A stretch of 51,287 nucleotides of DNA from an uncultured delta proteobacterium (GCA_947260035.1 CAMYOO010000040.1:1-51287), one strand, 5' to 3'. Counted from the first letter of the stretch, positions 824 through 50,371 are shown. Translations and numbers: made by a program. Notes: a model not told the origin generated them from the letters alone.

Positions 824-849
824 TCAGAAGCCCGCTTGGAGTTACTATC

Positions 850-2110: not shown

Positions 2111-2123
2111 TTGGGTCTCCTTT

Positions 2124-2908: not shown

Positions 2909-3079
2909 CTACGCCGCTTCCGCCTGATTCTTCTCTTCGAACTTTGCAGGGCTGGCGTTCCCATTCGTCGAGTGCTTTCGAGTTCGATTGTAGTGTATCG
3001 CGGATAGGGCACTCAAAGCACGCCCACCGGCGAATCCCAACCCTCTGCGGTCAACTTCCGTCTCGTCGATGGAATGAGA
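2909..3079 (-). mobile_element. IS3-family (rve/integrase-core) transposase C-terminal remnant
   Basis: A 56-codon open frame bounded upstream by TGA reads ...ALSALSAIHYNRTRKHSTNGNASPAKFEEKNQAEAA*. The YN..R.HS...G..SP..FE anchors match the usual IS3 OrfB tail. No catalytic DDE region is present. Confidence 0.4.
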
Positions 3080-3140
3080 TCAGCACCGCCGCCAGCTTCA
3101 GCTGACGACCGGGGCAGAGCGCCGCTACAGGAGAGGAGTC

Positions 3141-32507: not shown

Positions 32508-32924
32508 CTACGCGCGCGCGGAAAGGCGGTCGTGCAGCCACATGCCTGTCAGCATGGCGGCGACGAACACGAAGACCTGGGGAACCCCTTGGAGCACGCC
32601 CGCCAGCGCGGGCCCGGGGCAGAAGCCGCCCAGGCCCCAGCCCACGCCGAAAAGGGCCGCGCCGGCTACGAGCTTCGCGTCCAGGTCGGTGCGATCCGGG
32701 AGCATGAAGGCCGCTGCCAGCAGCGGGGCGCCGCGGCGGCGCGCCACGCGGTAACCCAGGGCCGACGTCACCAGGGCCGTGCCCATCACGAACGCCAGGC
32801 TCGGATCCCAGCTCCCGAGCACGTCCAGGAAGTTCTGCACCTTGGCCGGATTCGTCATGTCCGCCAGCGCCAGGCCGGCGCCGAACACCACCCCGGCAGC
32901 CAGCGCCACCCACGAAGTCCTCAT
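32508..32924 (-). CDS. YeeE/YedE-type sulfur-transport membrane protein, second half-size subunit
   Basis: Start at the internal ATG 32924 ([34 protein letters not shown]...). Contains [16 protein letters not shown] overlap with 32921..33352. Confidence 0.8.
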
Positions 32925-33352
32925 CCCGCACCTCCGAGCAGGTGGCGCACCACGAACACGGTGAGGGCTCCCGTGAGCATGAACACCGCCGTGGCCACGA
33001 TGGAGCGCTGCGAGCCGCGTCCGATTCCGCACACCCCGTGGCCGCTGGTGCAGCCGCCGCCCAGGCGCGTCCCGAACCCGACCAGCAGTCCGGCTCCGAT
33101 CAGCACCGGCAGCGGGGTCGAGACCTGGATCTCCAGGCCACCGCGCAGCGCTCCGACCGCGAGCGCACCGAGCGGGAGGCCCAGCAGGAACAGGAGCCGC
33201 CAGGTCCGATCGTCGCAGCGGCGCGCCAGCGCGCCGCCGAGGATCCCGCTGATGCCCGCGATGCGCCCGTTGACCAGGAGCAACAACACGGCGGCGCACC
33301 CGATCAGCAGGCCACCCAGGATCGCGGTGAAGGGCGTGAACGGCGTGGGCAT
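32921..33352 (-). CDS. YeeE/YedE-type sulfur-transport membrane protein, first half-size subunit
   Basis: 143 aa. [20 protein letters not shown] is the conserved YeeE/YedE Cys motif. Confidence 0.85.
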
Positions 33353-33362
33353 GCGCGATCAG

Positions 33363-33466
33363 GCTAGCACCCGACGCCGAAGCCGAGCGCTAGCACCCGG
33401 CGCCGAAGCCGAGCGCCAGCACCCGGCGCCGAAGCCGAGCGCTAGCATCCGGCCCCGGAGGTCCCC
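33363..33466. repeat. 26-nt tandem repeat, three good copies plus one degenerate copy
   Basis: GCTAGCACCCGACGCCGAAGCCGAGC (33363-33388), GCTAGCACCCGGCGCCGAAGCCGAGC (33389-33414) and GCCAGCACCCGGCGCCGAAGCCGAGC (33415-33440), then the degenerate GCTAGCATCCGGCCCCGGAGGTCCCC (33441-33466). The repeat runs directly into the ATG at 33467. Confidence 0.9.
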
Positions 33467-35181: not shown

Positions 35182-35257
35182 TGGTGAGCGCGCGGGGAAT
35201 CGAACCCCGAACCTAGGGATTAAGAGTCCCTTGCTCTGCCAATTGAGCTACGCGCCC
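35182..35257 (-). tRNA. tRNA-Lys (anticodon CTT), CCA encoded
   Basis: Hand fold: GGGCGCG TA GCTC AATTGGCA GAGC A AGGGA CTCTTAA TCCCT AGGTT CGGGG TTCGATT CCCCG CGCGCTC A CCA. There is one G-U pair in the acceptor stem. Confidence 0.95.
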
Positions 35258-35427
35258 GGACGGAATCTAGACCGCTTGCGGGCCAGCGCAACCCCGCGGC
35301 ATACCGAAGCTTTGTAGTTCCCGGGGGCAACGCGGGGGACGGCGTTGCGAGGGCCATCCGTCAGAGCTACCGAGGCACGGGTCGCCGGGCCGTGGAGCCG
35401 CAGGCGATCGCGAACCGAGGAGAACCC

Positions 35428-35829
35428 ATGCGCCTGCTCGCCCCGCTGCTGACCTTCGCCCTGCTGCTCCCGGGCGGCGCAGCCCTGGCCAAGCCGGCCG
35501 AGCGGTCCATGGACGAACGCTTCGCGGAGGCCGACTGGAACGACGACGGCTTCATCGACCGCCGCGAGTACTACGAAGCGCTGGTCTACGCCTTCTTCCG
35601 GCTCGACGCCGAGAGCACCGGATACCTCACCCGCGCCCAGTTGAAGGACGTGACCCCGGAGGTCTTCCAGGCCGCCGACCGCAATGGCGACGGCAAGATC
35701 GACCTCAACGAGTACATCGACGCGCGCTGGGACGACTTCGACGCGGCGGACGAGAACGGGGATGGGCTGCTGACCCTGGACGAGGTCAGGCGCTTCGACG
35801 CGAAGCTGCGCCCCGGCGAGCGGGGCTGA
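35428..35829 (+). CDS. Secreted EF-hand calcium-binding protein
   Basis: Start at the internal ATG 35428, preceded by GAGGAGAA. Signal MRLLAPLLTFALLLPGGAALA. EF-hand loops DWNDDGFIDRRE, DRNGDGKIDLNE and DENGDGLLTLDE. Confidence 0.85.
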   Translation: MRLLAPLLTFALLLPGGAALAKPAERSMDERFAEADWNDDGFIDRREYYEALVYAFFRLDAESTGYLTRAQLKDVTPEVFQAADRNGDGKIDLNEYIDARWDDFDAADENGDGLLTLDEVRRFDAKLRPGERG

Positions 35830-35835
35830 CCCCGC

Positions 35836-36927
35836 TCACCAGCCGTCCAGCAGACCCCCGTCGTACCAGTCCCAGAGCAGGTAGATCCCGAAGCGGGTCG
35901 GGCGGCGGCCGGCGTCGGTCAGCGGGATGCGCACACCCAGGTCGAGCCGGATGTGCTGACGCCGATTGAGCGGGATCTGGACCTGGGGAACCAGGTCCCA
36001 CTGCTCGTCCACTCCCCCACCCACGAAGGCCCAGCTCCCGACCGCCTCGACCATGGGCGAGATCACCCGGCCGAAGGGCTTCAAAGTGAAGCTCGTGCCC
36101 AGCGCGCTGCGCAGCTGGAACTCGTCGGGAATGCCGCGGTCCGTCGGAAACTCGCCCAGGGCCTGGACCTGGAGGAAAGCGCCGCCGGGCAGGATCTGCC
36201 CCCAGGCCAGATAGGGCTCGAAGACCGTCGTCCCCTTCCCGAGACCCCGATCGTCGTCGCCCGTGGGGAGCTTCACCTCCGCGCCGAGGCTGGCGATCGT
36301 GCCCCAGTCCAGGCTGTGGAAGAAGGCGTGCTTGACGCCCAGGCCCAGATCGCCGACGCCCCCGTTCCACGAGCCACTCGAGTCCGGGCGCTCGCGGGCG
36401 ACGAAGGGCAGCGATAGCTCCACCTGGCTGCGGGGCCCGAAGCGCTTCTCGAAGAGCAGCTCGCTGACGACCTCGCCGCCGCGGTTCGTGTTGGCGAAGA
36501 CCGTGGCGACGGCCTCGTCTTCCGGAAAAGCCTTCTCGGTGACCAGCGGCCGCGGCAGGTTGAGCTCGCCCCGGGGCCAGCGCTCGTCGCGGCACAGGCT
36601 GCGCAGGTGAGCGAGCACCGCCGCGATCTCCGCAGCGGTCAAGGTCTCGGCGTGCGCCGGCATCAAGGGGCTGAAGCCGCGGCCGGGCCCGCCCAGATGG
36701 ATCACAGCGGCCCAGTCGCTGTCCGGCTCGCGCGCGGAGAAGGCGCAGTCGGTGAAGTCGGGCATCGGCATCTGGAAGGCCTGGGTTCCCGGACCCCCGC
36801 GTCCATCCTGCCCGTGGCACTGGGCACAGCGCGCCTCGAACAGCGCGGCGCCATCGGGCTCGGCGGCGGCTGGCGGTGCGGCCAGCAGCGCGATCAGCAA
36901 CCCCGAGCGAACCGCCCGCGCCCTCAT
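35836..36927 (-). CDS. Cytochrome c domain fused to a MetA-pathway/'transporter'-type beta-barrel domain
   Basis: 3' 364 codons of ORF 35836..40548, from ATG 36927. Signal [22 protein letters not shown] and heme motif CAQCHG. The barrel-like region has GGVGDLGLGVKHAFF and ends in an aromatic residue (...LLDGW). ATGA overlap with the oxoprolinase stop. Confidence 0.75.
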   Translation of the reverse strand: MRARAVRSGLLIALLAAPPAAAEPDGAALFEARCAQCHGQDGRGGPGTQAFQMPMPDFTDCAFSAREPDSDWAAVIHLGGPGRGFSPLMPAHAETLTAAEIAAVLAHLRSLCRDERWPRGELNLPRPLVTEKAFPEDEAVATVFANTNRGGEVVSELLFEKRFGPRSQVELSLPFVARERPDSSGSWNGGVGDLGLGVKHAFFHSLDWGTIASLGAEVKLPTGDDDRGLGKGTTVFEPYLAWGQILPGGAFLQVQALGEFPTDRGIPDEFQLRSALGTSFTLKPFGRVISPMVEAVGSWAFVGGGVDEQWDLVPQVQIPLNRRQHIRLDLGVRIPLTDAGRRPTRFGIYLLWDWYDGGLLDGW

Positions 36928-39900
36928 CCGACAGGCCTCCCGAAGCCGCCCCCTCCCGGGGTCTCGACCCGCAGCCGTTCGCCAGGCTGCATCTGCAGCG
37001 TTGCACGCCCGGGGAGCTCCTCGACCCGGCCGTCGGCGTGCACGACCGCGTTGCGACCCCGAGCGCCCGCCGCGCCACCCGCGAGGCCCCAGGGCGAAAG
37101 CACCCGGCGCTCGCTCAGCAGCGAGACCGTGACCGGCTCCAGGAAGAGCCAGCGCCGCACCAGGCCCTCGCCACCGCACCAGCGCCCGGCCCCGCCCGAG
37201 CCGGCCCGCAGCGCGAACACCTCCAGCCGCACCGGGTAACGTTCTTCCAACACCTCGGCGTCGGTGATGCGCGTGTTGGTCATGTGGGTGTGCACTCCGG
37301 ATGCTCCCGCGAAGCCGTCGCCCGCGCCGGCGCCGCCGCCGATCGTCTCGTAGTAGCCGAAACGCTCGGTGCCGAACGCCACGTTGTTCATCGTGCCCTG
37401 GCTCGCGGCGACCCGGCCCAGGGCGCCCAACAGCACGTCCACGATGCGTTGAGACGTCTCCACGTTGCCGCCCACCACCGCCGCGCCGCGCGGCGGATCC
37501 AGCAGACTGCCGGACGGAACGCAGATCTCGACGGGCGCCAGACAGCCCCCATTGAGCGGGATGCGCTCGGCCACCAGGCTGCGCAGCACGTAGATCGCCG
37601 CCGCCTGCACCACCGCGCGCGGCGCGTTCAGGTTCCCCTCCACCGCGGCGCCGGTTCCGGCGAAGTCGATGCGCATGCGCTCGCCGCGCACACCCAGGCG
37701 CACGCAGACCGGCGTGCCGTCGTCCATGGCGTCCTCGAAGACGTGCTCTCCGTCGGGCAGGCGTGCGATCTCGCGCGCCACCTTGGCCGCAGCCGCGTCC
37801 TGAAGCTGACGCATGGTGGTCTCCACCGCGTCGAGCCCCCACTCGGCCACCGTCTCCAGAACCAGCGCCTCGCCGGCGCGGTTGGCGGCGACCATGGCCT
37901 CGAGGTCGGCCAGGTTGTCGTCGGGGCTGCGGGCGGGATGCGGGCCGCCTTCCAGCACGGCGCGGATCGCCGCCTCGTCCAGGCGCCCGCGACGCACCAG
38001 AAGCATGGGCCGGATCAACACGCCCTCCTCCTCCAGGCGCGTGGAGGTGGACGGCATGGAGCCCGGCGTAATCCCGCCCACGTCGGCGTGGTGGCCGCGA
38101 CTGGCGACGAAGAAGCGCGGCGCGGCGCCGGACGCCCCCACCACGAAAACCGGAGTCACCACCGTCACGTCGGGCAGGTGGGAGCCGCCGGCGAACGGAT
38201 CGTTGGTGACCACCACGTCCCCCTGCGCGAGGTCCGGAAAACGGGCCTGGACGGCGCGCACGGTTTCGCCCATGGCGCCCAGATGCACCGGGATGTGGGG
38301 TGCATTGGCGACCAGGCCGCCCTCGGCATCGAACACCGCACAGGAGTAGTCGAGCCGCTCCTTGATGTTGGTGGAGACCGAGGTATTGCGGAGCACCGCA
38401 CCCATCTGCTCGGCGATGGACATGAAGCGGCTTCCGAAGACCTCGAGCCGCACCGGGTCCGCCTCCTGCGCAGCAGGCGCCCCCTGCGTCGCAGCCGGCG
38501 CCCCCTGCATCGAAGCGGCGCGGCCGCCGACGTCGCTCAGCAGGAGTGCGCCGTTCGCGGCCACGCGTCCCTCGAAGCCGGCATCCAGGATCAGCGTCCC
38601 CGTGTCCTCGAGCACCACGGCCGGTCCGGAGAGCTCCGCGCCGGGGCCCAGCGCCTCGCGAGCGAAGACCGGCGCCACCACACGCCCCAGATCGGGAAAC
38701 CACACACTCTCGGTGCGCAGGGGCTGCGCCGGCTGGGCGCCTCCGGTCGCGCCGGGAAGCCGCGGCACCTCCGCCTGCTCCACCACGCGGACGCGGGCCG
38801 TGACGACCTCCAGCGGACGCTCGTCGCGCACGTATCCGAAGCGGGCGCGGTGCTCGGCGGCGAAGGCGTGGGCCCAGTCGCCGTGGGGCGGCTCGGCGAC
38901 CGCCAGGGCGGTCTCGGTTCCCGCATAGCGCAGATCGAGGCGACGCTCGACGCGCAGGGCGGCGGGATCGAGCCCCTCGGCTTCCAGCGCCGCACGGCCG
39001 CCGGCCTCGAGCTCCTCGAAGGCGGCGCGCAGCGCCTCGGGCAGGCCCTCCGCGGGCGCGGGGAGCAGCACGCGGCCCGCGTCGCGCTGCCCGTCCCAGC
39101 TCGCCTCCGCGATGCCGATGCCGTAGGCGGACAGCAGCCCCCCCAACGGGTGCAGCACCACGTGACGCATGCCCAGGCTGCGCGCCAACGCGCAGACGTG
39201 TTGGCCGCCGGCGCCGCCGAATCCGACCAGGGCGCACTCTCGCGGATCCACGCCGCGAGCGACCGACACCTCCTGGATGGCGCGAGCCATATGAGCGTTC
39301 GCCACCTCGACGAAGCCCGCAGCCACCTCGTCCGGCTCGCGGGCGTGCCCCGCCTCGGCCAGGGCGTCGCGCACCTGCTCGAGCCGCGCCGCCACGGCCT
39401 CCCGATCCAAGGGGAACGGAAAGCGGTCGGGCTGAAGACGCCCCAGGTAGAGGTTCACGTCGGTCACCGTCAGCTCGCGCGCCGCGAGCCGGCCATCGGC
39501 CGCGCGGATCCCGTAACAGAGCGGACCGGGATCGGCGCCGGCGCTCTCGGGACCCACGTTGAGGCGAAATCCGTCGAAGCGGCACAACGAGCCTCCACCC
39601 GAGGCCACGGTGTGGATGCGCAGCATGGGCGCCTTGACGCGCACGCCCGCGACCACGCTCTCGAACCCGCGCTCCACCTCTCCATCCAGGATCAGCGACA
39701 CGTCGGTGGACGTGCCGCCCATGTCGAAGCCGACGGCGCGGGGGAAGCCCGCCTCGGCCGCGACGTGGGCGGCCCCCACCACCCCGCCGGCGGGACCCGA
39801 CAGCAGCGCGGCGGGTCCGCGGAAGCGGGCCGCATCGGTGAGCCCCCCGGACGACTGCATGAAGCGCAAGCGCGAGCCGGGCAGCGCCGCCTCCAGCTCG

Positions 39901-40577
39901 GCGGCGTGGCGGCGCAGCAGCGGCGTCAGGTAGGCGTCGGCGCTCGCGGTCTCCGTGCGCGCCAGCAGGCCGATCTCGCGCGCCACCTCGTGGGACGCCA
40001 CCACATAGGCCAGGCCCTCTTCCCGGGCGATCTCGGCGATGCGCGCCTCGACGTGCGGGTGGGCATAGGCGTGGATCAAGGCGACGGCCAGCGAGCGAAT
40101 GCCGCTGCCCCGGGCGTCGCGCAACGCCGCGCGCAGGGCTTCGGCGTCCAGCGTGTCTACACGCTCGCCGTTCACGCCCACGCGCCCGCCCACCTCGACC
40201 ACTCGCTCGTGCAGCGGCTGCGGCTTCTCGATGCGCAGGGAGAAGAGCTCGGGTCGCTCCTGGGTGCCGATGCGCGCCACGTCGCCCAGCCCGCGGTCGG
40301 CGACCAGCAGCGTGCGCTCCCCGCGGCGCTCCAGCAGGGCGTTGGTGGCGACGGTGCTGCCCAGTTCGACGGAGCAGGCGGGGAGCGACGCGCCGGGCGC
40401 AGCGGCCCCGCAGCGCTGCAGGATGGTGCGGATGCCCTCCACCGGAGCCGTATCCGAGGACAGCACCTTGGCGGTGTGCAGCGCGCCGTCGGGCGCCAGG
40501 CCGATGCAGTCGGTAAAGGTGCCGCCGCGATCGACCCAGAACTGCCACTGGTTTGCCTTCGTTCGCCTGCGGCTCAC
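36924..40577 (-). CDS. 5-oxoprolinase (ATP-hydrolysing)/hydantoinase, fused HyuA-HyuB type
   Basis: Start chosen at GTG 40577 ([26 protein letters not shown]), because homologues begin just before DRGGTFTD. The HyuB half reads [37 protein letters not shown]. 1218 codons. Confidence 0.9.
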
Positions 40578-40653
40578 TGCGCGCCCGCCTTCGGCGGGCT
40601 TGCGTGGGCCGTAGTCCCGGCCGGACTCACCGCCTTGGCCAGCCCGGGCGCGC

Positions 40654-42615
40654 TCACCCGTCGTTGCGGCCGTAGAGCAGCTCGCGCAGGTCCAGGGCAA
40701 GCGAGCGGCCGTCGAGCCTGACGCGGCGCGGATTGAAGCCCTCCGCGCGGATCGAGAGCGCCAGGTCGGCGCTGTCCACGTCCGAGGGCGTCGCGAACCC
40801 GAACACGCCCCCCGGGCCACTGCTGCCACGGGCCACCACCCGGGGCGCCTCGCCCTCGCTGTGCGCCTCGACCACGACCTCGGCCTCTTCCACGGGCGGG
40901 CGCTCGCCGCTGGGCAGGGCGTCGTTGTCGGAGACCAGCACGCGGCCGGTGCGGCCGTCGCCCTGGCGCTCCACCTCTACCGCCAGGTCGCGCAGCCAGA
41001 TCATCGGCTCGCAGACCACGCCGGCGAAGCCCAGGGTCTCGAAGTGGTTGGCCGGGTGCGTGGCCTCGGCATCCTGGGGCGCCATTCCGTGGTCCGCCGT
41101 CAACACCAGGAAGGTCTCCTCGAGAAGCCCGGTCTTCTCCAGCAGCTCGAGCACGCGACCCACGCGCTTGTCGCCCTCCTCCAGGGCATCGGCCAGTCCA
41201 TCGGAGTGCGGTCCGTACTCGTGGCCCACGCCGTCGGTGAGGGTCAGCTCGTGATAGACGAAGTCCGGCGCGGGCCTGTCGGCGCGACTGAAGAGCTCCA
41301 CCACCTGCGCGATGCCGCGATTGTCGAGCACCGACTCGTCGATGGCCGACTTGCGGCCCTCCTCCCGCCAGCGCGGGTTGCAGTCGGTCGCGTACTCCTC
41401 GGTCAGGGCCTTCAGGGTCGGGCGATGCGAGGTGTTGCGGTTCTCCAGCGCGGCGTGGTCGGCGCCGCGACCGAACGGGGCGTAGATGGCCGCCGTGAAG
41501 CCGTCGTCGCCGCGCACGCGCTTGAACGCCTCGTAGAGCGACTCCACCGCCTGGCTGGAGAAGCCCTCGGTGAGAATCTGCTGCCCCTGCGGCGAGATCG
41601 TCTCGCGCTTCTCGCGCAGGTAGTAGCTGGGGTTCACCACGTCGTGGTGGCCGCACCAGGCCCCGGTGCCGATCGCCGTGTGGCTGGGCCAGGTGATGGA
41701 CGGGAAGTTCACCACGGAGCCGCCCTCGACCTGCGCCGCCCGCTCGCGCAGGCTGGTCAGATTGGGGTAGCGCTCCGGCTCGGCCTCCAGGCGCGCCTGC
41801 AGCTCCGTCATGTGCAGGCCGTCCATCAAGAACAGGTAGGCGCGGCGCGCGGGCGCGGCGCCGCGGTCCAGGACTTCCTCCAGCACGCGCCCGTCCTGCC
41901 GGCGCAGGTAGACGTCGGGCTCCACGCCGCGCTCGCTGGCCGTGCGACCGCTGTGATCGGCGCCGTCGATGCGGGGAAGGTCGCAGGCCGCCAGGATGGT
42001 GGGCGCCAGATCCACTGCGCGGACCGCCAGGCGGTGGCGCCCGGGCCGCACCCGCGGCCCGGCGAACCAGAGCGGCGCACGCGCCTGGCGTACGTGCAGG
42101 GCGCCGTGATTGCCCGCGTAGGGGCCCTGAGCCCAGTCCGTGGGCGAGATGGCCAGGTCCGGTGCATGGGGAGAGTCGAAGAGCTGCGCGATGCGCTCAC
42201 AGGCGAACGGATAGCTCTGGTACGCGGGCGCGATGAAGCGTCGATCCGCCTCGTCGGCGGCGAAGCCCGAGGCCAGGGCGGCCGTACGCTCCGCGTCCAG
42301 GCTGTCCAGGGCATGGGGATCCTGGTTCCCGATCGGATTCTCGCCCATCACCTCGATCACGGGAAAGTCGAAGCTGCCGTCGTCGCGCAGCACGCGCCGG
42401 AAGCGCACCAGCCCCCGTCGGGACCAGACCTCGTACGCGCCGCCCTCGGCGTCCTCGCGAAAGGTGACGACCAGGTCCACCCGGTCGCCGCAGTCGGGGT
42501 CGGTCAGCAGCGCGTGGATCGCGCGATTGCCCGACTCCTCCTGGTTCGCATCCAGCCCCTGTCCGCCCGGCCGCTCGGGTTCCCACGTCTGCATGGGCCC
42601 GAGGGTATCACGCAC
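40654..42615 (-). CDS. Alkaline-phosphatase superfamily protein (NPP/phosphodiesterase type), unusual domain order
   Basis: GTG 42615, or ATG 42594. Motifs YLFLMDGLHM (Asp), FPSITWPSHTAIGTGAWCGHHDVVN (Thr nucleophile), LTDGVGHEYGP (D-x3-H) and LVLTADHGM (DH). The GNHGALH ... VDLAPTILAACDLP segment lies N-terminal to all of these. Confidence 0.8.
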   Translation of the reverse strand: MRDTLGPMQTWEPERPGGQGLDANQEESGNRAIHALLTDPDCGDRVDLVVTFREDAEGGAYEVWSRRGLVRFRRVLRDDGSFDFPVIEVMGENPIGNQDPHALDSLDAERTAALASGFAADEADRRFIAPAYQSYPFACERIAQLFDSPHAPDLAISPTDWAQGPYAGNHGALHVRQARAPLWFAGPRVRPGRHRLAVRAVDLAPTILAACDLPRIDGADHSGRTASERGVEPDVYLRRQDGRVLEEVLDRGAAPARRAYLFLMDGLHMTELQARLEAEPERYPNLTSLRERAAQVEGGSVVNFPSITWPSHTAIGTGAWCGHHDVVNPSYYLREKRETISPQGQQILTEGFSSQAVESLYEAFKRVRGDDGFTAAIYAPFGRGADHAALENRNTSHRPTLKALTEEYATDCNPRWREEGRKSAIDESVLDNRGIAQVVELFSRADRPAPDFVYHELTLTDGVGHEYGPHSDGLADALEEGDKRVGRVLELLEKTGLLEETFLVLTADHGMAPQDAEATHPANHFETLGFAGVVCEPMIWLRDLAVEVERQGDGRTGRVLVSDNDALPSGERPPVEEAEVVVEAHSEGEAPRVVARGSSGPGGVFGFATPSDVDSADLALSIRAEGFNPRRVRLDGRSLALDLRELLYGRNDG

Positions 42616-44170
42616 CTCGCCGGGCGAAGCGACGGGTCAGGCGGCCCAACGCGTCGCGCAGGGCCTCGTCGCCCAGCAGCCAGGCCAGTGGCAGGGCCAC
42701 GGCGGCGAAGGCCGCGACGCCCAGCGCCAGGTCCAGGAACGCGCCGGCGAAGCCCTCCCCGCCCCGCTGCACCCAGAGCGCGGCACCGGCCGCGGGCAGC
42801 GCCGCCGCCAGGGCCCGACCGCTGCTGGCCCCCAGAGCGGCCAGGTCCGGCGACCCGTGCAGGCGCCGGGCCAGCAGCAGCGTGGCCAGGGCATTGGCGC
42901 TCATGGCGATGACGCCGGCCAGCGCCAGACCCGTAGCGCCGGCCTGACGGCCCAGGCTGATGTAGAGCGGCAGGGCCAGGACGGCGACCGCGGTGCCCAG
43001 CAGCATGGGTCGCCAGGTATCGCCCCTCGCGTAGAAGGCCCGCGCGGCGACCTGCTGCACGACCCAGGCAGGCACCGCCAGGCACAGGATCTGCAGCAGC
43101 CCGGCGACCACCACCGCATCGTCGGCGGAGAACGCACCCCGGCGAAACAGCACCGCGACGCCGGCCTCGGCCAGACCGAAGGCCGCGGCGCCGGTCAGCA
43201 CCGCCAGCGACAGCGCCACCTGCAGCGTGCGCAGCAGCACCCGGTCCAGCTCATCGTGACGGCGGGACGTCCACAACGCCGCCAGCGTGGGCAGGGCCGC
43301 AGCGGCGATCGCCTGCCCAACCACGGCCACCGGGGCCAGCATGAGCTGGCGCGCGTAGCCAAGGCTGGCGATGACGCCCTCGCCCACGTCGTCGCCGAAG
43401 ACCTTCTCGTACCACTCGTCCACGGTGAGCAGCGATGCCCCGACCATCAACGGGAGCGCTACCAGCAGGTACTTCAGGAACTCGCGATCCGCAGGAGCGA
43501 TGCGCAGCCGCACACGAAGGTTGCGCAGGGCGTCGAACAGCGCGATTCCGAACGGCCCCAGCGCCGCGCCCAGCAGGGCGCCCCAGATGAAGCCCTCGGG
43601 TCCCCTGCCCAGGCCCAGCCCGGCGCCGATGATGGCCAGGTTGTAGACCAGCGGCGCGGCGGCCTGGGCGCCGAAGCGACCTCGCGCCATCAGCGCGCCG
43701 CGCAGGATGCCGCCGGTCACGAAGAAGACCTGCGCCGGCAGCACGATCCGCGTGAGCCGCACCGTGAGCGCACGGATCTCCGGCTGCATGCCGTCGAACA
43801 GGAACCCGACCAGCGGCTCCGCGTAGAACCAGATCAGCGCCGTAAAGAGCAGCGCGGCCAGCCCCAGGGTGCCCAGGACCGTGGCCAGGAAGCGCTCGGC
43901 GGTCGCTTCGTCCTGCTGCTGGCGCATGCGGGTGTAGAGCGGGATGAAGGCGATGGAGAGCGCACCGCCCGCCAGCAGGTGGTTCAGGATGTCCGGGAGC
44001 ATGAAGGCGGCCCGGTAGGCGTCCATCTCGGCGCTCACGCCCACCTGCCAGGCCAGCACCATCTCGCGCACGTAACCGATCACGCGCGAGAGCAGAACGC
44101 TCCCGGCCAGCAGCGCCGCCGCCGCGCCAATCCGCCGCCCGTGCGCCGCCGGCTCCGGCCCCTCGCTCAC
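42608..44170 (-). CDS. murJ: Lipid II flippase MurJ (MviN)
   Basis: Start chosen at GTG 44170. The upstream part of the ORF runs into the palindromic repeat. N-terminal SVLLSRVIGYVREMVLAWQVGVSAEMDAYRAAFMLPDILNHLLAGGALSIAFIPLY is the MurJ signature region. 521 codons. Confidence 0.9.
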   Translation of the reverse strand: MSEGPEPAAHGRRIGAAAALLAGSVLLSRVIGYVREMVLAWQVGVSAEMDAYRAAFMLPDILNHLLAGGALSIAFIPLYTRMRQQQDEATAERFLATVLGTLGLAALLFTALIWFYAEPLVGFLFDGMQPEIRALTVRLTRIVLPAQVFFVTGGILRGALMARGRFGAQAAAPLVYNLAIIGAGLGLGRGPEGFIWGALLGAALGPFGIALFDALRNLRVRLRIAPADREFLKYLLVALPLMVGASLLTVDEWYEKVFGDDVGEGVIASLGYARQLMLAPVAVVGQAIAAAALPTLAALWTSRRHDELDRVLLRTLQVALSLAVLTGAAAFGLAEAGVAVLFRRGAFSADDAVVVAGLLQILCLAVPAWVVQQVAARAFYARGDTWRPMLLGTAVAVLALPLYISLGRQAGATGLALAGVIAMSANALATLLLARRLHGSPDLAALGASSGRALAAALPAAGAALWVQRGGEGFAGAFLDLALGVAAFAAVALPLAWLLGDEALRDALGRLTRRFARRGA

Positions 44171-44211
44171 CCACCCCCCCTCACCCAGCAGGGTACTGCA
44201 ACGCGCAAGGA

Positions 44212-44380
44212 GGGACGTTCCTGCGTAACTGCATTCGGTGCCACTCCTGCACGCAGGGACGTTCCTGCATAACTGCACGGAGGGTCACTCCTCACCGCCA
44301 GGAGTGGTACTGCGTGCAGTTATGCAGGAACGTCCCTGCGTGCAGGAGTGGTACCGGGTGCACTTATGCAAGAACCTCCC
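44212..44380. repeat. Nested near-perfect palindrome: two direct plus two inverted copies of a 44-nt unit
   Basis: AGGGACGTTCCTGC(G/A)TAACTGCA occurs at 44211-44233 and 44255-44277. Its reverse complement occurs at 44315-44337, with a degenerate copy at 44359-44380. The arms 44236-44279 and 44313-44356 are complementary with one mismatch. The symmetry centre is at 44296. Confidence 0.92.
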
Positions 44381-44426
44381 CGACGCGCGTGAAGCGGCTT
44401 GCTCGTGGCGCGGCAGCCTGGCCTGA

Positions 44427-45533
44427 TCAGCGCGGATTGGGTTCGCGCCAGAGGCGGCCGTCGAAGCTCTCCACGATCACGTCGTCGCCCTCGCGACCGC
44501 GGAAAAAGGGGTGCTGCAACGGGACCTTGCCGTACGGGGTGTCGAGTACATACTGAGGGATCGCGAAGCCGCTCGTGCGGCCGCGCAGGCTGCGGAAGAG
44601 CGCCAGGCCCTCCTCCACGGGAACGCGGAAGTGGGCGGTCCCCTCCAGCAGCTGGGCCTGGTAGCAGTAGTACGGGCGCACCCTCATGCGCACCAGGCCC
44701 TCGCAGAGCGCCCTCATGGTGTCCGGGTCGTCGTTGATGCCCCGCATCAGGACGCTCTGATTGCCCAGCGGGATGCCGGCTCGACTGAGGCGATCGCAAG
44801 CCTCGGCCGCCTCGGCGGTCAGCTCGCGAGGATGGTTGAAGTGGGTGTTCAGCCAGATCGGGTGGTGCCTCTCCAGCAGCCGGCACAGGTCGTCCGTGAT
44901 GCGGAACGGCAGGGTCACGGGCAGGCGCGTGCCCAGGCGCACGATCTCCACGTGGGGGATGCTGCGCAGCTCGCCCAGCAGCCAGGCGAGCTTGTCGTCG
45001 GAGAAGACCAGCGGGTCGCCGCCGGTGAGCAATACGTCGCGGATCTCCGGCGTACGGCGGATCCACGCCAGGGCCGTCTCGAGCTCGCGCTGTTTCATGG
45101 CCCAGCCCGGCTCGCCCACCATGCGCTTGCGCAGGCAGAAGCGGCAGTAGAGCGCGCACTCGTTGTTGACGCAGAAGGCGATGCGATCCGGGTAGACGCG
45201 GATCACGTTCTTCACCGGCGAGTGGGCCACCTCGTCCAGCGGGTCCGCCAGGCCGGCAGGGTCCTGCAGCTCGGCGCTGCGCGGAACCACCTGGCGCCGG
45301 ATCGGGCAGTCCGGATCCTGGGGATCCATGAGCGCCGCGTAGTACGGCGTGATCACGAAGTGGAAGCGCTGGGCGAGCTGCTCGATGGCCAGCCGCTCGT
45401 CCGCCACCGGGTCGGCGAAGCCTTCCAGGGCGGCGGCGTCGCGCACGCGCGCGCGCATCTGCCAGCGCCAGTCGCGCCACTCCGCCTCGGTCACACCCTC
45501 CGGCGGCGACGTCTTGGGGAATCCACTGGTCAC
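44427..45533 (-). CDS. KamA-family radical SAM protein (lysine 2,3-aminomutase-like)
   Basis: Start chosen at GTG 45533, a GTGA overlap with the upstream stop. Cluster motif CALYCRFCLRKR (CxxxCxxC) and LLTGGDPLVF are present. The N-terminal region reads WRDWRWQMRARV...FHFVITPYYAALM. Confidence 0.9.
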   Translation of the reverse strand: MTSGFPKTSPPEGVTEAEWRDWRWQMRARVRDAAALEGFADPVADERLAIEQLAQRFHFVITPYYAALMDPQDPDCPIRRQVVPRSAELQDPAGLADPLDEVAHSPVKNVIRVYPDRIAFCVNNECALYCRFCLRKRMVGEPGWAMKQRELETALAWIRRTPEIRDVLLTGGDPLVFSDDKLAWLLGELRSIPHVEIVRLGTRLPVTLPFRITDDLCRLLERHHPIWLNTHFNHPRELTAEAAEACDRLSRAGIPLGNQSVLMRGINDDPDTMRALCEGLVRMRVRPYYCYQAQLLEGTAHFRVPVEEGLALFRSLRGRTSGFAIPQYVLDTPYGKVPLQHPFFRGREGDDVIVESFDGRLWREPNPR

Positions 45534-46531
45534 GCCAGCCCCAGCCGCTTCAGGCCCGCGGCGATCACCTCGGCCAGCAGATCCTCGTGCCGCCGGCCGG
45601 CCAGCTCCGCCAGGATGCCGAAGGAACCATCGGGCGCGAAGGTGGGCAGCGGGTTGATCTCCAAAAAAAACGGACGCCCCTCGGCGTCGAGCCGGAAGTC
45701 GGTGCGGGCGAAGTCGCGACACTCCAGCGCGCGCCAGGCGCGCAGGGAGAGCTCCGCCAGCTCCGCCTCCAGCGACGGCGTCAGCTCGCCGGGCAGCGCG
45801 TGACGCCAGCCGCCCGGCGGCGCCGCGTGGCGCTCCAGGGCGTGCAGGCCGATGCCGGTCTCGGCCTCGAGCGCCCGCTGCAGCACCGGCAGCGCCCGCG
45901 GCGGATCGTTGCCCACCAGGGTGACCGTGTACTCCGCGCCGGGCAGGAAGGGCTCCGCCAGGGCGGGCTGGTCATAGGCGCGCACCAGCTCCTCCACCCG
46001 TTCGGCCAGGGCCGCCCGGTCGGCCACCCGCGACGCCGGCCCGATGCCCTTGGCCGTCCCTTCCCAACGTGGTTTCACGAAGAGCGGGAACAGTCCGGGA
46101 AGCAGAGCTTTTTCCGCTTCCTCCGCAGAGGCCAGCAGCACCCGCGGCGGCACCGGCACTCCCGCCGCCCCGACCTTCTCGGCACACCAGGCCTTGTCCA
46201 GAGAGAGAGACAACGTCAGCGCATCCGAGCCCAGGGCGGGAACTCCGCACATCTCCAGGAGCACCGGCGCCCAGGCCTCGCGGTTCCGCGAGCCGCGTCC
46301 CTCGGCGATGTTCAGCGCCGCGTCGAGCGGCGGCAGCTCGCCCTTCCCCGCCCGGCCCAGCAACTCGTGGGGACTGCCCAGACGCAGCGGCTCGTGACCC
46401 AAGGCGCGAACCGCGGCTGCCAGCGCCTCGACGGTCGCCTCGGGCTCATACTCGGCGTCGGCGTCCGGCGGATCGCCGGGGCAACCCGGGAACGTGCCCA
46501 GCAGGTCGTATACGAGCCCCACGCGCAGCAT
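45530..46531 (-). CDS. ATP-grasp ligase, D-alanine--D-alanine ligase-like family
   Basis: Start at the internal ATG 46531 (MLRVGLVYDL...). Ddl-like ATP-grasp features: DKAWCAEKVGAAGVPVPP, LFVKPRWEGTAKGI, AEYTVTLVGN and the C-terminal DFRLDAEGRPFFLEINPLP. Confidence 0.85.
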   Translation of the reverse strand: MLRVGLVYDLLGTFPGCPGDPPDADAEYEPEATVEALAAAVRALGHEPLRLGSPHELLGRAGKGELPPLDAALNIAEGRGSRNREAWAPVLLEMCGVPALGSDALTLSLSLDKAWCAEKVGAAGVPVPPRVLLASAEEAEKALLPGLFPLFVKPRWEGTAKGIGPASRVADRAALAERVEELVRAYDQPALAEPFLPGAEYTVTLVGNDPPRALPVLQRALEAETGIGLHALERHAAPPGGWRHALPGELTPSLEAELAELSLRAWRALECRDFARTDFRLDAEGRPFFLEINPLPTFAPDGSFGILAELAGRRHEDLLAEVIAAGLKRLGLA

Positions 46532-46589
46532 GTCCGCAAGGGTAACGGCGGGCGGGCCGTGCGGCCCCGAGCGGGCCATATTCCCCGGG

Positions 46590-47063
46590 GTGGACCCCGA
46601 AAGCGCGCGTCGCCGTCGAATCCAGGCCTGGCTGGCGGTCGGCGCGTGGGCGGCGTTGATCCTGATCCTCGGAGGCGACCAGTTCTCGGCGGGTGACACC
46701 CGCGGCTGGCTGCGCGAGTTGGTGTTCCGCTTCTTCCCCGGGCTCACCGACGCCCACCTGGATCAGGCCAACTACTTCGTGCGGCGCAGCGCCCACGTGG
46801 GCTTCTACGCGGTGCTGGGCTTCCTGGCCTACCGCGCCCTGCGTATCTCGTCGGTGCGCATGACACCGGCGGCGCTGGGGCTGGCGCTGCTGCTTGCGCT
46901 GTGCGTCGCCGCCGCCGACGAGGGCATGCAATCACGCCGGACAGGGCGCACCGGCTCGCCCCGCGACGCGGCGCTCGACCTGGCCGGGGCCGGCGCCGGC
47001 GCGTTGCTGCTGGCGGGCTTCGAGCGCAGGCGCCGCTACCGGAGCAAAGCGGCCGATGCTTGA
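46590..47063 (+). CDS. VanZ-like membrane protein
   Basis: In-frame GTG 46590, chosen to avoid overlap with the divergent ATP-grasp gene. VRRSAHVGFYAVLGFLAYRAL ... ADEGMQSRRTGRTGSPRDAALDLAGAGAGALL matches the VanZ pattern (hf..Y..L ... DE..Q.f.pgR..s..D...n..G). Confidence 0.7.
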   Translation: MDPESARRRRIQAWLAVGAWAALILILGGDQFSAGDTRGWLRELVFRFFPGLTDAHLDQANYFVRRSAHVGFYAVLGFLAYRALRISSVRMTPAALGLALLLALCVAAADEGMQSRRTGRTGSPRDAALDLAGAGAGALLLAGFERRRRYRSKAADA

Positions 47064-48678
47064 TCGCATCGAGCGCCTGGGCAACGCATTACCCGACCCC
47101 GCGACCCTGTTCCTGCTGGGCGCGCTGGCGGTAATGGGTCTGTCCCAGCTGGCGGTGTCCTTGGACTGGAGCGTCGAGAAGAACGTCGCCCGTGAGGTGC
47201 AGGTCCCGGTCCTCGATGCAGCGGGCAACCCCGTGATGGACCCGCTCTCCGGCCGCGCGCTCACGGTCGCGAAGCTCGACCCCGCTACGGGAGACGTGGC
47301 GCGTGAGCGCGTGGCAGTCCCGGTTCGCGCCGTGAGCCTGCTCTCCTCGGACGGCCTCTACTGGGCGGTCTCCAGCCTGGTGAACAACTTCAAGAACTTC
47401 CCGCCGCTGGCGATCGTGCTGGTGGGCATGCTGGGCATCGGCCTGGCCGAGCGCACCGGCTTCATCGGCGCACTGCTCAAGGCGACGCTGGTGGGCATGC
47501 CCCAGGCGCTGCTCACGCCCACGGTCTTCCTGGTGGGCGTGCTGTCCTCGGTGGGCCTCGACGCGGGCTACGTGGTGCTTCCTCCTGTGGCCATGGCGCT
47601 CTACCAGCAGGCGGGGCGCTCGCCGCTGGTGGGACTGGCGGCGGTCTTCGCCGGCATTTCCGCGGGCTTCAGCGCCAACCTGTCGATCACCGCCCTCGAT
47701 CCGCTGCTGGCCGGCCTGTCCGAGTCCGGCGCGCGGATCCTGGACCCGGACTATGCGGTCGCGGCCACCGCCAACTGGTGGTTCATGATCGCTTCCACGT
47801 TCCTGCTGGTGGCGGTGGGCTGGGCGGTGACCGCCTTCTGGGTCGAGCCCCGCTACCACGCCAAGTCCGTCGAAGAGGGCGGCGCCTTGGGCGGCGAGAC
47901 CGAGGCGGAGCCCGCGCTGAGCGACCTGGAGCGCCGCGGCCTGCGCCGTGCCGGCCTCATTGCGCTGGCCGCGCTGGCCGTGATGCTGGCCGCGACCTGG
48001 ATTCCCGGAGCGCCGCTCCACGGCATGGCCGGCCGCTTCCCGCGCTGGGTTTCCGCCATCGTGCCGCTGGTCTTCCTGGGCTTCTTCCTGCCCGGCCTGG
48101 TCTACGGTGCCGTCACAGGCGCCATCCGCAGCGACAAGGACGTGGCCCGGATCCTGGGCGAGACCATGGCCGGCATGGGCCCGTACATCGTCCTGGCCTT
48201 CTTCGCGGCGCAGTTCATCGAGTACTTCCGTCACTCGGGCCTGGGCGAGATGCTGGCCATCACGGGCGGGCAGGCGCTGACCCGCGCTCAGCTGCCCCCC
48301 ACCCTGCTCATGGCCGCCTTCATCGGCGTGGTGATGATGGGCAACCTCTTCATCGGCTCCATGTCGGCGAAGTACGCCTTCTTCGCGCCGGTCTTCGTGC
48401 CCATGTTCATGCAGGTGGGCATCAGCGCCGAGCTGACCCAGGCCGCCTACCGGGTGGGCGACTCGGTCTCCAACGTCATCACGCCGCTCAACCCCTACGT
48501 GGTGATCATCCTGGTCTTCATGCGGCAGTACGTGCCGCGCGCCGGCATCGGAACCCTGGTGGCGCTGATGCTGCCCTACACGATCGTCTTCGGGCTGACC
48601 TGGACCGCGCTGTTGGTGCTCTGGATGCTGAGCGGCGTGCCGCTCGGCCCCGGCGGGCCGCTTACCTACGCGCCGTAG
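47056..48678 (+). CDS. AbgT-family transporter (aminobenzoyl-glutamate/dipeptide-type)
   Basis: Start at the internal ATG 47056 (MLDRIERLGNALPDPATLFLLGALAV), the characteristic AbgT N-terminus. Polytopic, 540 aa. It overlaps the VanZ stop by 8 nt. Confidence 0.9.
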   Translation: MLDRIERLGNALPDPATLFLLGALAVMGLSQLAVSLDWSVEKNVAREVQVPVLDAAGNPVMDPLSGRALTVAKLDPATGDVARERVAVPVRAVSLLSSDGLYWAVSSLVNNFKNFPPLAIVLVGMLGIGLAERTGFIGALLKATLVGMPQALLTPTVFLVGVLSSVGLDAGYVVLPPVAMALYQQAGRSPLVGLAAVFAGISAGFSANLSITALDPLLAGLSESGARILDPDYAVAATANWWFMIASTFLLVAVGWAVTAFWVEPRYHAKSVEEGGALGGETEAEPALSDLERRGLRRAGLIALAALAVMLAATWIPGAPLHGMAGRFPRWVSAIVPLVFLGFFLPGLVYGAVTGAIRSDKDVARILGETMAGMGPYIVLAFFAAQFIEYFRHSGLGEMLAITGGQALTRAQLPPTLLMAAFIGVVMMGNLFIGSMSAKYAFFAPVFVPMFMQVGISAELTQAAYRVGDSVSNVITPLNPYVVIILVFMRQYVPRAGIGTLVALMLPYTIVFGLTWTALLVLWMLSGVPLGPGGPLTYAP

Positions 48679-48745
48679 CCGCGCGGGAGGCGTGGTAGGG
48701 TAACCGGGCCCCGCAGCCGGGAGAGGGTAATGGCCGCACGAAGAA

Positions 48746-50371
48746 GTGGGCGGCCGCCCCCAGAAGAACTTCAAGAACCGCCAGCCGTCGCTGCGGGACC
48801 TGGTCCGGACGGCCGCCGCGCGCGGCGACGCCGACTGCATGGTCTACGGCGAGCGGCGCATTTCCTACGGCGAATTTGCGCGGCTGTGCTGGGGCGCCGC
48901 CCGCACCCTGCGCGACGAGCACGGCTTCGGCGGCGGCGACCGTCTGGCGGTGCTGTCGTACAACTGCCCGGAGTGGATCGTGGCGCTGTTCGGCGCCACG
49001 TCCCTGGGCGGGATCGGGGTCGGCCTGAACGGCTGGTGGGCGGCCGAAGAGCTGGACTACGGGCTGCGCGACTCCGGCGCCAGGGCCCTGGTGGTGGACG
49101 AGCGGCTCTGGCCTCGGGTGGAGCAGGTCGCGCGCGAGGCCCCGGACCTGGAGCGCATCTTCTACATCGGCGAGAGCCCGCCGCCGGGCACGCTGCCCAT
49201 CGCCGAGCTGCTCCAGCCCTGCGACACGGTTCCCGACGAGCCCATCGCCGAAGACGACCCCTGGGTGATCCTCTACACCTCGGGCACCACCGGGCGCTCC
49301 AAGGGCTGCATCACCACCCACCGCGGCACCATCGCCCAGGTGCTGGGCATCCTGTTCGCGCGGGTGTGCACCGCCGCGGCCGACGGCGAGGCGGCGCCAG
49401 CCGGCGACGCGGGCCAGACCGTGAGCCTGCTCTCCTCGCCGCTGTTCCACGTGGGCGGGCTCCACTCCAACGTCTGCGCCCTGCTGACGGCCGGCGCGCG
49501 CATGGTCTTCCTGGAAGGCCGCTTCGACCCCGAGAAGGTGATGGCGCTGGTGGAGCGCGAGCGCGTGCAGAGCTGGGGCGCGATTCCGACCATGCTGCAC
49601 CGCGTGGTGCACCACCCCAAGGTGGGCGACTACGACCTCTCCAGCCTCAAGGCGATCTCGTTCGGCGGCGCGCCGACCGCGCCCGAGACCATCGAGAAGG
49701 CCCAGGAGGTGCTGCCCATCGAGCCCTCCTTCGCCAACGCCTACGGGCTCACCGAGACCCACGGCGTCGCGACCACCTGCAGCGGGCGCGCCCTGCTGGA
49801 GCGCAAGACGTCGGCGGGCCTGCCCATCCCGGTGCTCGACCTGGAGCTCCGCGACGAGCAGGGCCGGCCCGTGGAGCCTGGCCGGCTGGGCGAGGTCTGC
49901 TTTCGTGGCCCCACCATCACGCCCGGCTACTGGAACCGCCCCGAAGCCAGCGCCGAGACGGTCCAGGACGGCTGGCTCCTCACCGGCGACCTGGGCTACT
50001 GCGACGACGACGGTTTCCTCTACGTGGTGGACCGGGCCAAGGACATGATCCTGCGCGGCGGCGAGAACGTGTACTGCGTAGAGATCGAGAACTGCCTGGC
50101 CGACCATCCGGAGATCGACGAGGCCGCCATCGTCGGCGTGCCCGACGCGGAGCTGGGCGAGCGGGTCAAGGCGGTGGTGCGCCGGGTGTCGGGCTCGCAG
50201 CTGGGTGAGGACGCCGTGCGCGCCCACGTGGCGGCCCACATGGCGTCGTTCAAGGTCCCCGAGTTCGTCGAGTTCGTGGCTACGCCCCTGCCCCGCAATG
50301 CATCGGGCAAGCTGCTGAAGACCGAGCTGCGGGGCCAGGCGTCCCGCTTCGCAACGCCCGACGACCAATGA
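48746..50371 (+). CDS. AMP-dependent acyl-CoA synthetase/ligase
   Basis: 541 aa. AMP-binding motif ILYTSGTTGRSKG, plus YGLTET, TGDLGYCDDDGFLYVVDRAKDMI and a C-terminal GK. Confidence 0.9.
   Translation: MGGRPQKNFKNRQPSLRDLVRTAAARGDADCMVYGERRISYGEFARLCWGAARTLRDEHGFGGGDRLAVLSYNCPEWIVALFGATSLGGIGVGLNGWWAAEELDYGLRDSGARALVVDERLWPRVEQVAREAPDLERIFYIGESPPPGTLPIAELLQPCDTVPDEPIAEDDPWVILYTSGTTGRSKGCITTHRGTIAQVLGILFARVCTAAADGEAAPAGDAGQTVSLLSSPLFHVGGLHSNVCALLTAGARMVFLEGRFDPEKVMALVERERVQSWGAIPTMLHRVVHHPKVGDYDLSSLKAISFGGAPTAPETIEKAQEVLPIEPSFANAYGLTETHGVATTCSGRALLERKTSAGLPIPVLDLELRDEQGRPVEPGRLGEVCFRGPTITPGYWNRPEASAETVQDGWLLTGDLGYCDDDGFLYVVDRAKDMILRGGENVYCVEIENCLADHPEIDEAAIVGVPDAELGERVKAVVRRVSGSQLGEDAVRAHVAAHMASFKVPEFVEFVATPLPRNASGKLLKTELRGQASRFATPDDQ

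Follow-up and report, generated by a model that had tools for sequence, protein, structure and literature searches.

A 51,287-nt stretch of DNA from an uncultured delta proteobacterium (GCA_947260035.1 CAMYOO010000040.1:1-51287, here called the window) contains a long nested palindrome at positions 44212-44380, between a KamA-family aminomutase gene and murJ. We conclude that this palindrome is very probably a four-unit cluster, with two units in direct and two in inverted orientation, of a lineage-specific family of extragenic repeats that resembles REPINs, the hairpin-forming doublets of repetitive extragenic palindromic (REP) sequences, and that has a partner of the REP-associated tyrosine transposase (RAYT)/TIRYT type. 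Since the repeat unit is multi-copy and occurs at the orthologous site in independent assemblies, the palindrome is neither an artefact nor unique. An initial annotation of the window had listed a REP or bacterial interspersed mosaic element (BIME) among several candidate identities. Our analysis supports this candidate, as the unit is multi-copy and extragenic and flanks a RAYT-type Y1 transposase gene.

The two arms of the palindrome (44212-44292 and 44300-44380) are each 81 nt long, are complementary at 70 of 81 positions (86%), and are separated by 7 nt. The inner arms (44236-44279 and 44313-44356) deviate from perfect complementarity at only one of 44 positions, and the loop CACCGCC (44293-44299) is closed by a 7-bp stem (CACTCCT/AGGAGTG). 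Each arm is built from two direct 44-nt units whose starts lie 44 nt apart. With two units direct and two inverted, the palindrome as a whole is nested. Two units lie on the plus strand: the outer unit A1 on the murJ side (44205-44248), whose core (44212-44233) carries the G variant of the R position, and the inner unit A2 (44249-44292), whose core (44256-44277) equals the family consensus. Beyond the loop, the minus strand carries the inner unit B2 (44300-44343), with a consensus core at 44315-44336, and the degenerate outer unit B1 on the kamA side (44344-44387; core 44359-44380). This core, the 22-mer GGGACGTTCCTGCRTAACTGCA, occurs four times in the window, starting at 44212 and 44256 on the plus strand and at 44315 and 44359 on the minus strand (the last with three mismatches), compared to an expectation of 0.00 in 100 shuffles. 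Even when six mismatches were allowed, no further copies of the 22-mer were present in the 51-kb window.

Folding of the region predicted a very stable hairpin; the energy is -152.8 kcal/mol (z = -15.7) for RNA and -89 kcal/mol (z = -15.0) for DNA. The initial annotation had described direct 44-nt units followed by inverted copies, 44-nt inner arms with one mismatch, a 7-bp stem around a 7-nt loop, and outward pairing to 44212/44380. The unit spacing, the four cores and the comparison of the arms bear out each of these, and in the folds the outer pairing reaches about 7 bp further on each side, to roughly 44201-44390. We take this interval, on neither strand in particular, as the full extent of the cluster; it is marked by the folds, by the inverted repeat, and by spurious long-hairpin matches to Rfam that span exactly 44201-44390. 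The mirror-image open reading frames (ORFs) that had been noted on both strands are also present (VQLCRNVPACRSGT... on the plus strand and ...PCSYAGTSLRAGV... on the minus strand).

A dispersed repeat family and its partner transposase

We scanned one genome per GTDB species, JGI metagenome contigs, and viral contigs for the 22-mer. Among the GTDB species representatives, it was found in 41 stretches, all from a single metagenome-assembled genome (MAG), "Deltaproteobacteria bacterium Meg19_46_Bin_213". With up to four mismatches allowed, these stretches contain 102 units in 43 clusters, and 94 of the 102 depart from the 22-mer at no more than one position. The JGI metagenome contigs yielded 84 further stretches, and no match was found in the viral contigs. 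The unit, whose copy number the initial annotation had proposed to check, is multi-copy and extragenic in a related genome. The annotators had also known of no described element with this sequence, and a full-text literature search for the sequence agrees, giving only chance matches in mammalian papers, although the class to which the element belongs has been described.

The arrangement of units is highly regular. Over the 150 clusters, 103 contain units in both orientations, and 102 of these are convergent (54 +-, 22 ++-, 22 +--, and 4 ++--), leaving one exception. The 2+2 architecture of the window recurs in the collected stretches L017, L031, and L105. Apart from ORF-extension artefacts, all clusters lie between ORFs. 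Where both neighboring genes are within 150 nt, a hand tally gave about nine tandem, six convergent, and one divergent pair. Among L004-L135, many elements begin 0-6 nt after a stop codon, with TGA or TAG followed by C(C)CTGCA (for example, L002 12207-12215 and L042 7458-7466, and also in L039, L024, and L128). The DNA folding energies of family members range from -33 to -89 kcal/mol, and we detected no strand asymmetry of folding energy across the family. In several elements, the non-repeat flanks are also reverse complements of each other (L010, tctaaccc...gggttaga; L014, cgcctgac...gtcaggcg); we cannot tell whether these reflect a target preference or extended element ends.

These data bear on whether the inverted duplication exists in the organism at all. 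A near-perfect 2+2 palindrome is what a fold-back chimera of assembly or amplification would look like, and the family is often found near contig ends, some 18 of its 150 clusters being no more than 60 nt away, which shows that assemblers struggle with the repeats. However, independent assemblies carry an element upstream of murJ (the window, L002, L042, L078, and L109), and the 2+2 architecture is found both at the other sites named above and as the flanks of a transposase gene. Moreover, the arms are imperfect and the outer unit is asymmetrically degenerate, whereas a fold-back would copy perfectly. We therefore give a chimeric origin almost no credence.

The transposase gene was found in the same MAG. 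In L029, direct units (++) at 2591-2656 and inverted units (--) at 3585-3650 bracket an ORF at 2741-3550 that encodes a 269-aa protein. The protein matches Pfam Y1_Tnp with 40.3 bits (cut-off 23), and its H60-x-H62 and Y119-x3-N-P motifs (N59, H60, H62, Y119, N123, and P124) are invariant in 47 homologs. When a profile of the homologs was compared to the PDB, the N-terminal half matched the E. coli REP-associated transposase TnpAREP (4ER8; E = 9e-4) and the C-terminal half matched DnaA domain IV (E = 8e-6), while no IS200/IS608 TnpA sequence was matched. A phmmer search of the transposase against the PDB gave no match. The AlphaFold2 model of a 99%-identical protein, P0121 (pLDDT 91.9), has 4ER8_A as its best fold match in the PDB (E = 3e-7, TM 0.68); the IS608 and ISDra2 transposases rank lower. 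Sequence identity between the partner protein and 4ER8 is only 18%. The C-terminal part gives a weak match to HTH_23, and PF08299 is found in many homologs. On these profile and model comparisons, the partner gene encodes an HUH/Y1 tyrosine transposase of the REP-associated type, whose C terminus bears a helix-turn-helix (HTH) resembling that of DnaA domain IV.

The association between gene and units extends beyond this MAG. The same units flank, in the + gene - sense, the homologs with 84-99% identity from the other metagenome populations that we examined. The flanks read ++ gene -- in L048, L049, and L050, as in L029; + gene - in L046; and + gene --- in L047, while in L045 a unit was detected at one side only. 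Among the loci for which downstream sequence was available, most (L045, L047, L048, and L050) are followed by a shared cation-efflux (Cation_efflux) gene, but L046 is not. More distant homologs (49-57% identical; L136, L138, and L140) are flanked by inverted GGGGACGTTC(C/T)TG termini. Since the upstream neighbors of the gene, APH and a gene of about 620 aa, are kept in L138 and L140 (53-57% identical homologs), the transposase gene appears to have been inherited vertically over a long time. Each population has one transposase locus within the 848 kb of collected stretches. The search for a RAYT partner that the initial annotation had suggested thus leads to a RAYT-type Y1 gene bracketed by units in a related MAG and in metagenome populations.

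The identity of the bracketed gene also bears on a second explanation, that the palindrome is a classical miniature inverted-repeat transposable element (MITE), an internally deleted DDE-type insertion sequence (IS) with terminal inverted repeats and target-site duplications. Like a MITE, the element is small, non-coding, and multi-copy, with inverted-repeat ends. However, direct repeats at either candidate element boundary have lengths that fit chance, and we thus found no target-site duplications there. The only gene bracketed by units encodes a Y1/HUH transposase rather than a DDE enzyme, it is single-copy and syntenic rather than IS-like, and the number of units changes in 44-nt steps. We regard a classical MITE as very improbable. 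The MITE-like label of the initial annotation applies loosely, in the sense of a miniature non-autonomous element, but neither a target-site duplication nor a DDE parent accompanies it.

The interior of the left terminus at the transposase locus (L029 2657-2700, CTCCTGGACGGTGA) resembles the loop region of the window (44287-44306, CTCCTGGCGGTGA on the minus strand). The resemblance hints that the hairpin elements might be internal-deletion derivatives of the transposase locus, although the match is too short to carry this further.

Conservation and turnover of the 44-nt unit

An alignment of 106 units gave the consensus CTGCR-N4-GGGACGTTCCTGCRTAACTGCA-YN3-GKRYCASTC for the 44-nt unit. The unit can be read as a series of TGCA-delimited modules: TGCA-N4-10mer, TGCA-TAAC, and TGCA-N4-10mer. 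The spacing of the innermost cores falls into classes 22 or 44 nt apart (inner lengths of 32-37, 54, and 76 nt), and many elements have an extra outer half-unit.

Whole units are gained or lost. Between L037 and its near-identical counterparts L067 and L115, the difference is exactly one 44-nt unit that ends at TGCA. L031 and L061 differ by a block of about 46 nt, roughly one unit, that is bounded by a 10-nt direct repeat. Together with the differences in unit number at the orthologous murJ site and the deletion of an omp85-family gene beside the element (described below), the exact 44-nt indel of L037 offers circumstantial support for the recombination hotspot that the initial annotation had put forward.

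What is conserved in the unit is sequence. Three of the four cores in the window equal the MAG consensus despite a divergence of about 11% in the flanks, which would have a probability of about 5e-4 if the cores were neutral. The identity of the cores next to diverged flanks suggests either constraint or ongoing homogenization. The 22-mer is kept as a sequence even in lone units that have no pairing partner, and the bases upstream of it that could extend a stem are variable.

The 22-mer also reaches beyond the GC-rich populations. The exact 22-mer (TGCAGTTATGCAGGAACGTCCC) is found in contigs with 45-50% GC from other metagenomes (L055/L071/L100, L097, L108, L121, and L125). In several of these AT-rich contigs, it lies either directly after the TAA stop codon of a RAYT-like ORF or behind a promoter-like TTGACA-N17-GAGATAAAT upstream of a RAYT-like gene, with about 50% identity of these RAYT-like genes over the aligned part. 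Other AT-rich contigs carry the 22-mer between small toxin-antitoxin-like gene pairs (nucleotidyltransferase/HEPN-like). All copies in the AT-rich contigs run in the same direction, unlike the inverted arrangement in Myxococcota. That a 22-bp site is preserved in genomes so unlike one another speaks for its sequence-specific recognition by transposases of this clade.

An alternative is that the units form an array of sites, centered on the near-palindrome GGGACGTTCC, to which a dimeric protein binds in an operator or nucleoid-organizing role unrelated to transposition. In its favor, this 10-mer comes close to being self-complementary, conservation of the 22-mer concerns sequence and not structure, and the partner protein has a double-strand-DNA-binding HTH that resembles DnaA domain IV. 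However, the sites are located at gene 3' ends or between convergent genes, not in promoter regions; a Y1 transposase gene is bracketed by units in every lineage examined; and the copy number per site changes freely. We judge such an array very unlikely.

Several observations weigh against the assignment of the palindrome to a REPIN-like family with a RAYT/TIRYT-type partner. The L029 protein scores 71.3 bits against the NCBIfam REP-associated tyrosine transposase model (positions 3-142 of 146), below the cut-off of 80. The 22-mer makes an unconvincing stand-alone hairpin, its pairing being limited to a 4-bp TGCA/TGCA mini-stem and the loop-less 10-mer near-palindrome. A GTAG tag is absent from the 22-mer, and the CGTC inside GGAACGTCCC is not a stem-end tag. 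Matching between arms over the variable inner 14 nt is no better within elements (9.21 of 14) than between elements (9.64 of 14); nothing in this comparison indicates selection for pairing, and it is instead the sequence that is conserved. Automatic and manual searches by others gave no REP-like sequences beside genes of the TnpAREP-like subclass 2.1 (Quentin et al., 2018). No recent pair of filled and empty sites was found among 136 loci, all of which were chosen by the repeat, so that all orthologous partners carry an element. The sole empty site is in L003, a distant relative, and the mobility of the units is thus inferred. Finally, the window holds one element only, and the transposase is known from relatives rather than from the organism of the window.

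If the palindrome is a REPIN-like cluster served by a RAYT/TIRYT-type enzyme, one can envisage how it arose. Convergent inverted units would allow either DNA strand, or a transcript, to fold into a long hairpin. By analogy to TnpAREP and the IS200/IS605 TnpA, the transposase would recognize the invariant 22-mer and would cut and rejoin single-stranded DNA; its DnaA-like HTH could read the invariant 22 bp in duplex DNA or in a hairpin stem. Cleavage and rejoining at a fixed short sequence on folded-back inverted units could disseminate the units, which would spread into extragenic DNA and mostly settle shortly after stop codons. TGCA, which is self-complementary and marks the boundaries of every module, might be where the DNA is cut or joined. 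The gain and loss of whole 44-nt units in place would then be due either to the enzyme or to slippage between TGCA-delimited modules. Cutting and joining at TGCA would explain the modular indels, but replication slippage between the modules explains them equally well.

A more far-reaching possibility is that subclass 2.1/TIRYT transposases themselves drive REPIN-like populations, with the DnaA-like domain reading a 22-bp site that occurs in genomes from 45% to 72% GC, TGCA serving for cutting and joining, and nested arrays being built, expanded, and shrunk in place. We propose this only tentatively and think it somewhat doubtful. If true, the element would be no passive relic but a modular, programmable generator of hairpins. 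To our knowledge, there is no biochemistry or enzymology of this HTH-bearing, TnpAREP-like subclass. The family could provide a test system for DNA recognition and processing, as it combines an invariant 22-mer, TGCA modules, exact 44-nt gains and losses between near-identical populations, and conservation of the site across phyla.

The kamA-murJ junction and other features of the window

The genes around the element are all on the minus strand, in the order ATP-grasp (D-Ala-D-Ala-ligase-like), KamA-family, element, murJ, phosphodiesterase-family gene, and hydantoinase/oxoprolinase. The kamA-like gene (44427-45533) encodes a 368-aa radical SAM aminomutase (Pfam Radical_SAM and LAM_C; homologs are 357-390 aa) and most likely starts at GTG 45533, with a 4-nt overlap with the upstream ATP-grasp gene. 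One source names one of its homologs "arginine 2,3-aminomutase." murJ (42608-44170), which encodes the lipid II flippase (Pfam MurJ, 217 bits), starts at GTG 44170, and its N terminus aligns with those in L002, L042, and L003. The element lies 46 nt after the kamA-like stop codon (TGA 44429-44427) and 41 nt before the murJ GTG. The initial annotation had the location right, but its figures of 47 and 42 nt were each off by one. Judging by the names attached to the KamA homologs, the window is assigned to Myxococcota.

Comparison with related populations gives the junction a history. In L003 (GCA_947259215.1; KamA 84% identical), kamA and murJ are 18 nt apart and there is no element. In L002 (KamA 94% identical), kamA is followed by an omp85-family gene and then by a 1+1 element directly before murJ. 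L042, from MAG Meg19_46_Bin_213, is 88-90% identical to the window in nucleotides over 7.4 kb and has omp85 followed by a 2+1 element; L078 and L109, whose 300-nt flanks around the element match those of L042 at 98.7-99% identity, have the same junction. The number of units upstream of murJ thus goes from none in L003 through 1+1 in L002 and 2+1 in L042, L078, and L109 to 2+2 in the window. A right flank, GTA(C/A)CCTGC(T/G)GG, before the murJ start is common to all of these loci. As the murJ-side site and its flank are shared while unit number differs by lineage, the sequence comparison indicates that the element is old at this site and predates the separation of three related populations from the window lineage.

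A full omp85-family gene of about 419 aa is found at the junction in L001, L002, and L042. In the window, alignment with L001 and L002 reveals a vestige at 44388-44426 (minus strand), in which the spacer between kamA and omp85 survives together with ~19 nt from the 5' end of omp85, its ATG changed to ACG at 44406-44404. The body of omp85 was therefore deleted in the window lineage, with the deletion junction at the degenerate outer unit. The element therefore does not simply split an otherwise tightly coupled gene array, as the initial annotation had proposed: the closest relatives carry the additional omp85 gene there, and kamA and murJ are closely spaced (18 nt) in the distant L003 only. The element marks a junction of gene-content change, at which omp85 was lost, and places a very stable hairpin before an essential cell-wall gene.

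This location raises the question of whether the hairpin was selected by the host as a terminator, attenuator, insulator, or mRNA-stability barrier between kamA/omp85 and murJ, with its repeat nature being secondary. REPs at the 3' ends of E. coli genes are known to affect mRNA stability and translation. The high stability of the RNA fold, the retention of an element at one site across populations that are 88-94% identical, and the preference of the family for gene 3' ends, often a few nt from stop codons, all favor such a role. However, the element has neither a U-tract nor another signature of an intrinsic terminator. We found no compensatory changes, with pairing between arms no better within elements than between them; unit number at the murJ site varies (1+1, 2+1, 2+2), so no particular structure is conserved; and the conserved entity is the 22-mer sequence, including that of unpaired lone units. 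Further, no murJ promoter is predicted in the 41 nt downstream, so that a full stop of transcription would presumably be costly. We consider selection for a regulatory hairpin unlikely.

Other candidate identities were examined in the same region. A scan of 43900-44700 found no terminator-like sites; there is no T-run, and the sequence after either arm is GC-rich, leaving the strong terminator of the initial annotation unsupported. No sigma-70-like promoter was found in the same interval. A sensitive Rfam scan of 43900-44700 matched only microRNA-precursor models, on both strands and at 75.8 bits versus a threshold of 168 bits, as is typical of long hairpins. Together with a scan of the whole window at gathering thresholds, this yielded nothing besides those sub-threshold microRNA-precursor matches and four tRNAs.

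The copy upstream of murJ is most likely a tolerated passenger of the REPIN-like family. The hairpin would be part of any transcript that runs from kamA to murJ, and one may speculate that, as RNA, it modulates read-through or mRNA stability as a partial barrier or stabilizer. Eye-catching as it is, the palindrome would then be ordinary selfish or domesticated repeat DNA. In practical terms, Myxococcota MAGs of this group suffer from the units, which fragment their assemblies and produce false mirror-image ORFs.

The wider neighborhood (36924-50371) is conserved across Myxococcota assemblies (L001-L003), with the ATP-grasp ligase, KamA-like aminomutase, (omp85), murJ, phosphodiesterase, and oxoprolinase genes on one strand. 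Divergent from it are genes for a VanZ-like protein (in the relatives only), an AbgT transporter, an AMP-ligase, and CstA. Elsewhere, a 26-nt unit (GCTAGCACCCGGCGCCGAAGCCGAGC) is repeated 3.7 times with 92% identity at 33363-33457, in the intergenic DNA that separates a 146-aa ORF (32921-33358, minus strand) from a divergent pyridine-nucleotide-disulphide oxidoreductase/rhodanese gene (start at about 33467). The first 3,000 nt of the window (1-3000) have a G+C content of 57-61%, compared to about 70% elsewhere, and may be foreign or otherwise atypical DNA. Because tRNA-Lys(CTT) (35182-35257, minus strand; 98.8% identical to part of L003) overlaps the mechanically called start of an EF-hand protein ORF (35224-35829, plus strand), the EF-hand gene probably starts further downstream.

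Relationship to known repeat-transposase systems

The closest counterpart is the TIRtron/TIRYT system, in which RAYT-like genes are flanked by long inverted repeats that share the motif GGGGWSAS, and in which moderately abundant repeats are found as monomers, dimers, and clusters (Di Nocera et al., 2013). The TIRYT protein is RAYT-like but longer than RAYTs and has a C-terminal HTH, as do members of subclass 2.1, where the domain is Bac_DnaA_C, HTH_23, or HTH_28 (Di Nocera et al., 2013; Quentin et al., 2018). Our system likewise has a RAYT-like Y1 gene with long terminal inverted repeats on either side in place of classical GTAG REP hairpins, and copies of its termini are dispersed as monomers, dimers, and clusters at moderate abundance. 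The second (inner) box of the unit fits GGGGWSAS in many copies (GGGGTCAG), and the corresponding box in relatives reads GGGGACAC (L140) or GGGACAC (L138). Our system differs in that the outermost box of the unit, (G)GGGACGT, has six of eight matches to GGGGWSAS; in that the TGCA-delimited 44-nt unit is stacked in direct tandem in each arm, giving nested palindromes; and in that its host is an uncultured Myxococcota lineage. A literature search found no TIRYT repeat with the sequence of our unit, and a search combining RAYT with Deltaproteobacteria found nothing.

Subclass 2.1/2.1.2 of the TnpAREP-like proteins is defined by a TnpAREP-like core and a C-terminal Bac_DnaA_C or HTH_23 domain (Quentin et al., 2018). 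The partner transposase resembles this subclass, to which we assign it by domain architecture, in having such a core and a DnaA_C/HTH_23-type C terminus. Unlike the subclass 2.1 genes of that survey, it is bracketed by units with at least 102 copies in one MAG. It thus offers a natural example of abundant repeats tied to a DnaA-HTH-bearing, RAYT-like transposase, from a subclass that had no REP partner in a large survey.

The units of the window relate to E. coli in a different way. In E. coli BIMEs, REPs of about 35 nt that form GTAG-tagged hairpins alternate in orientation (Y/Z). Here too, extragenic palindromic repeats are clustered in mosaics, and the best structural match of the partner is the E. 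coli TnpAREP structure 4ER8. However, the units are 44 nt long and are stacked directly before they invert.

Among RAYTs, only Groups 2 and 3 have been linked to abundant repeats (Bertels et al., 2017). As in the REPIN-RAYT systems (Bertels and Rainey, 2011; Bertels et al., 2017), our family consists of inverted doublets of a short, conserved extragenic sequence that form hairpins, its copies number in the tens to hundreds, it flanks a RAYT gene that is single-copy and inherited vertically, and its elements persist at orthologous sites in related lineages. Compared to those REPINs, the 22-mer is a poor palindrome and has no GTAG tag, the transposase has an extra DnaA-like HTH domain, and higher-order copies are nested (++--) rather than arranged as tandem REPINs.

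By definition, a REP is in itself an imperfect palindrome, 20-40 nt long, that bears a GTAG (or CGTC) tag at one end, and the unit falls outside this definition. Because the classical definitions of REPs and MITEs both fail, we file the unit as a RAYT/TIRYT-associated repeat and do not erect a new class. As judged from sequence comparisons, the system corresponds to TIRYT (Di Nocera et al., 2013) and is similar to TnpAREP subclass 2.1 (Quentin et al., 2018). The element is a REPIN-like cluster of a RAYT/TIRYT (TnpAREP subclass 2.1-like) system, a new repeat family within a known class.

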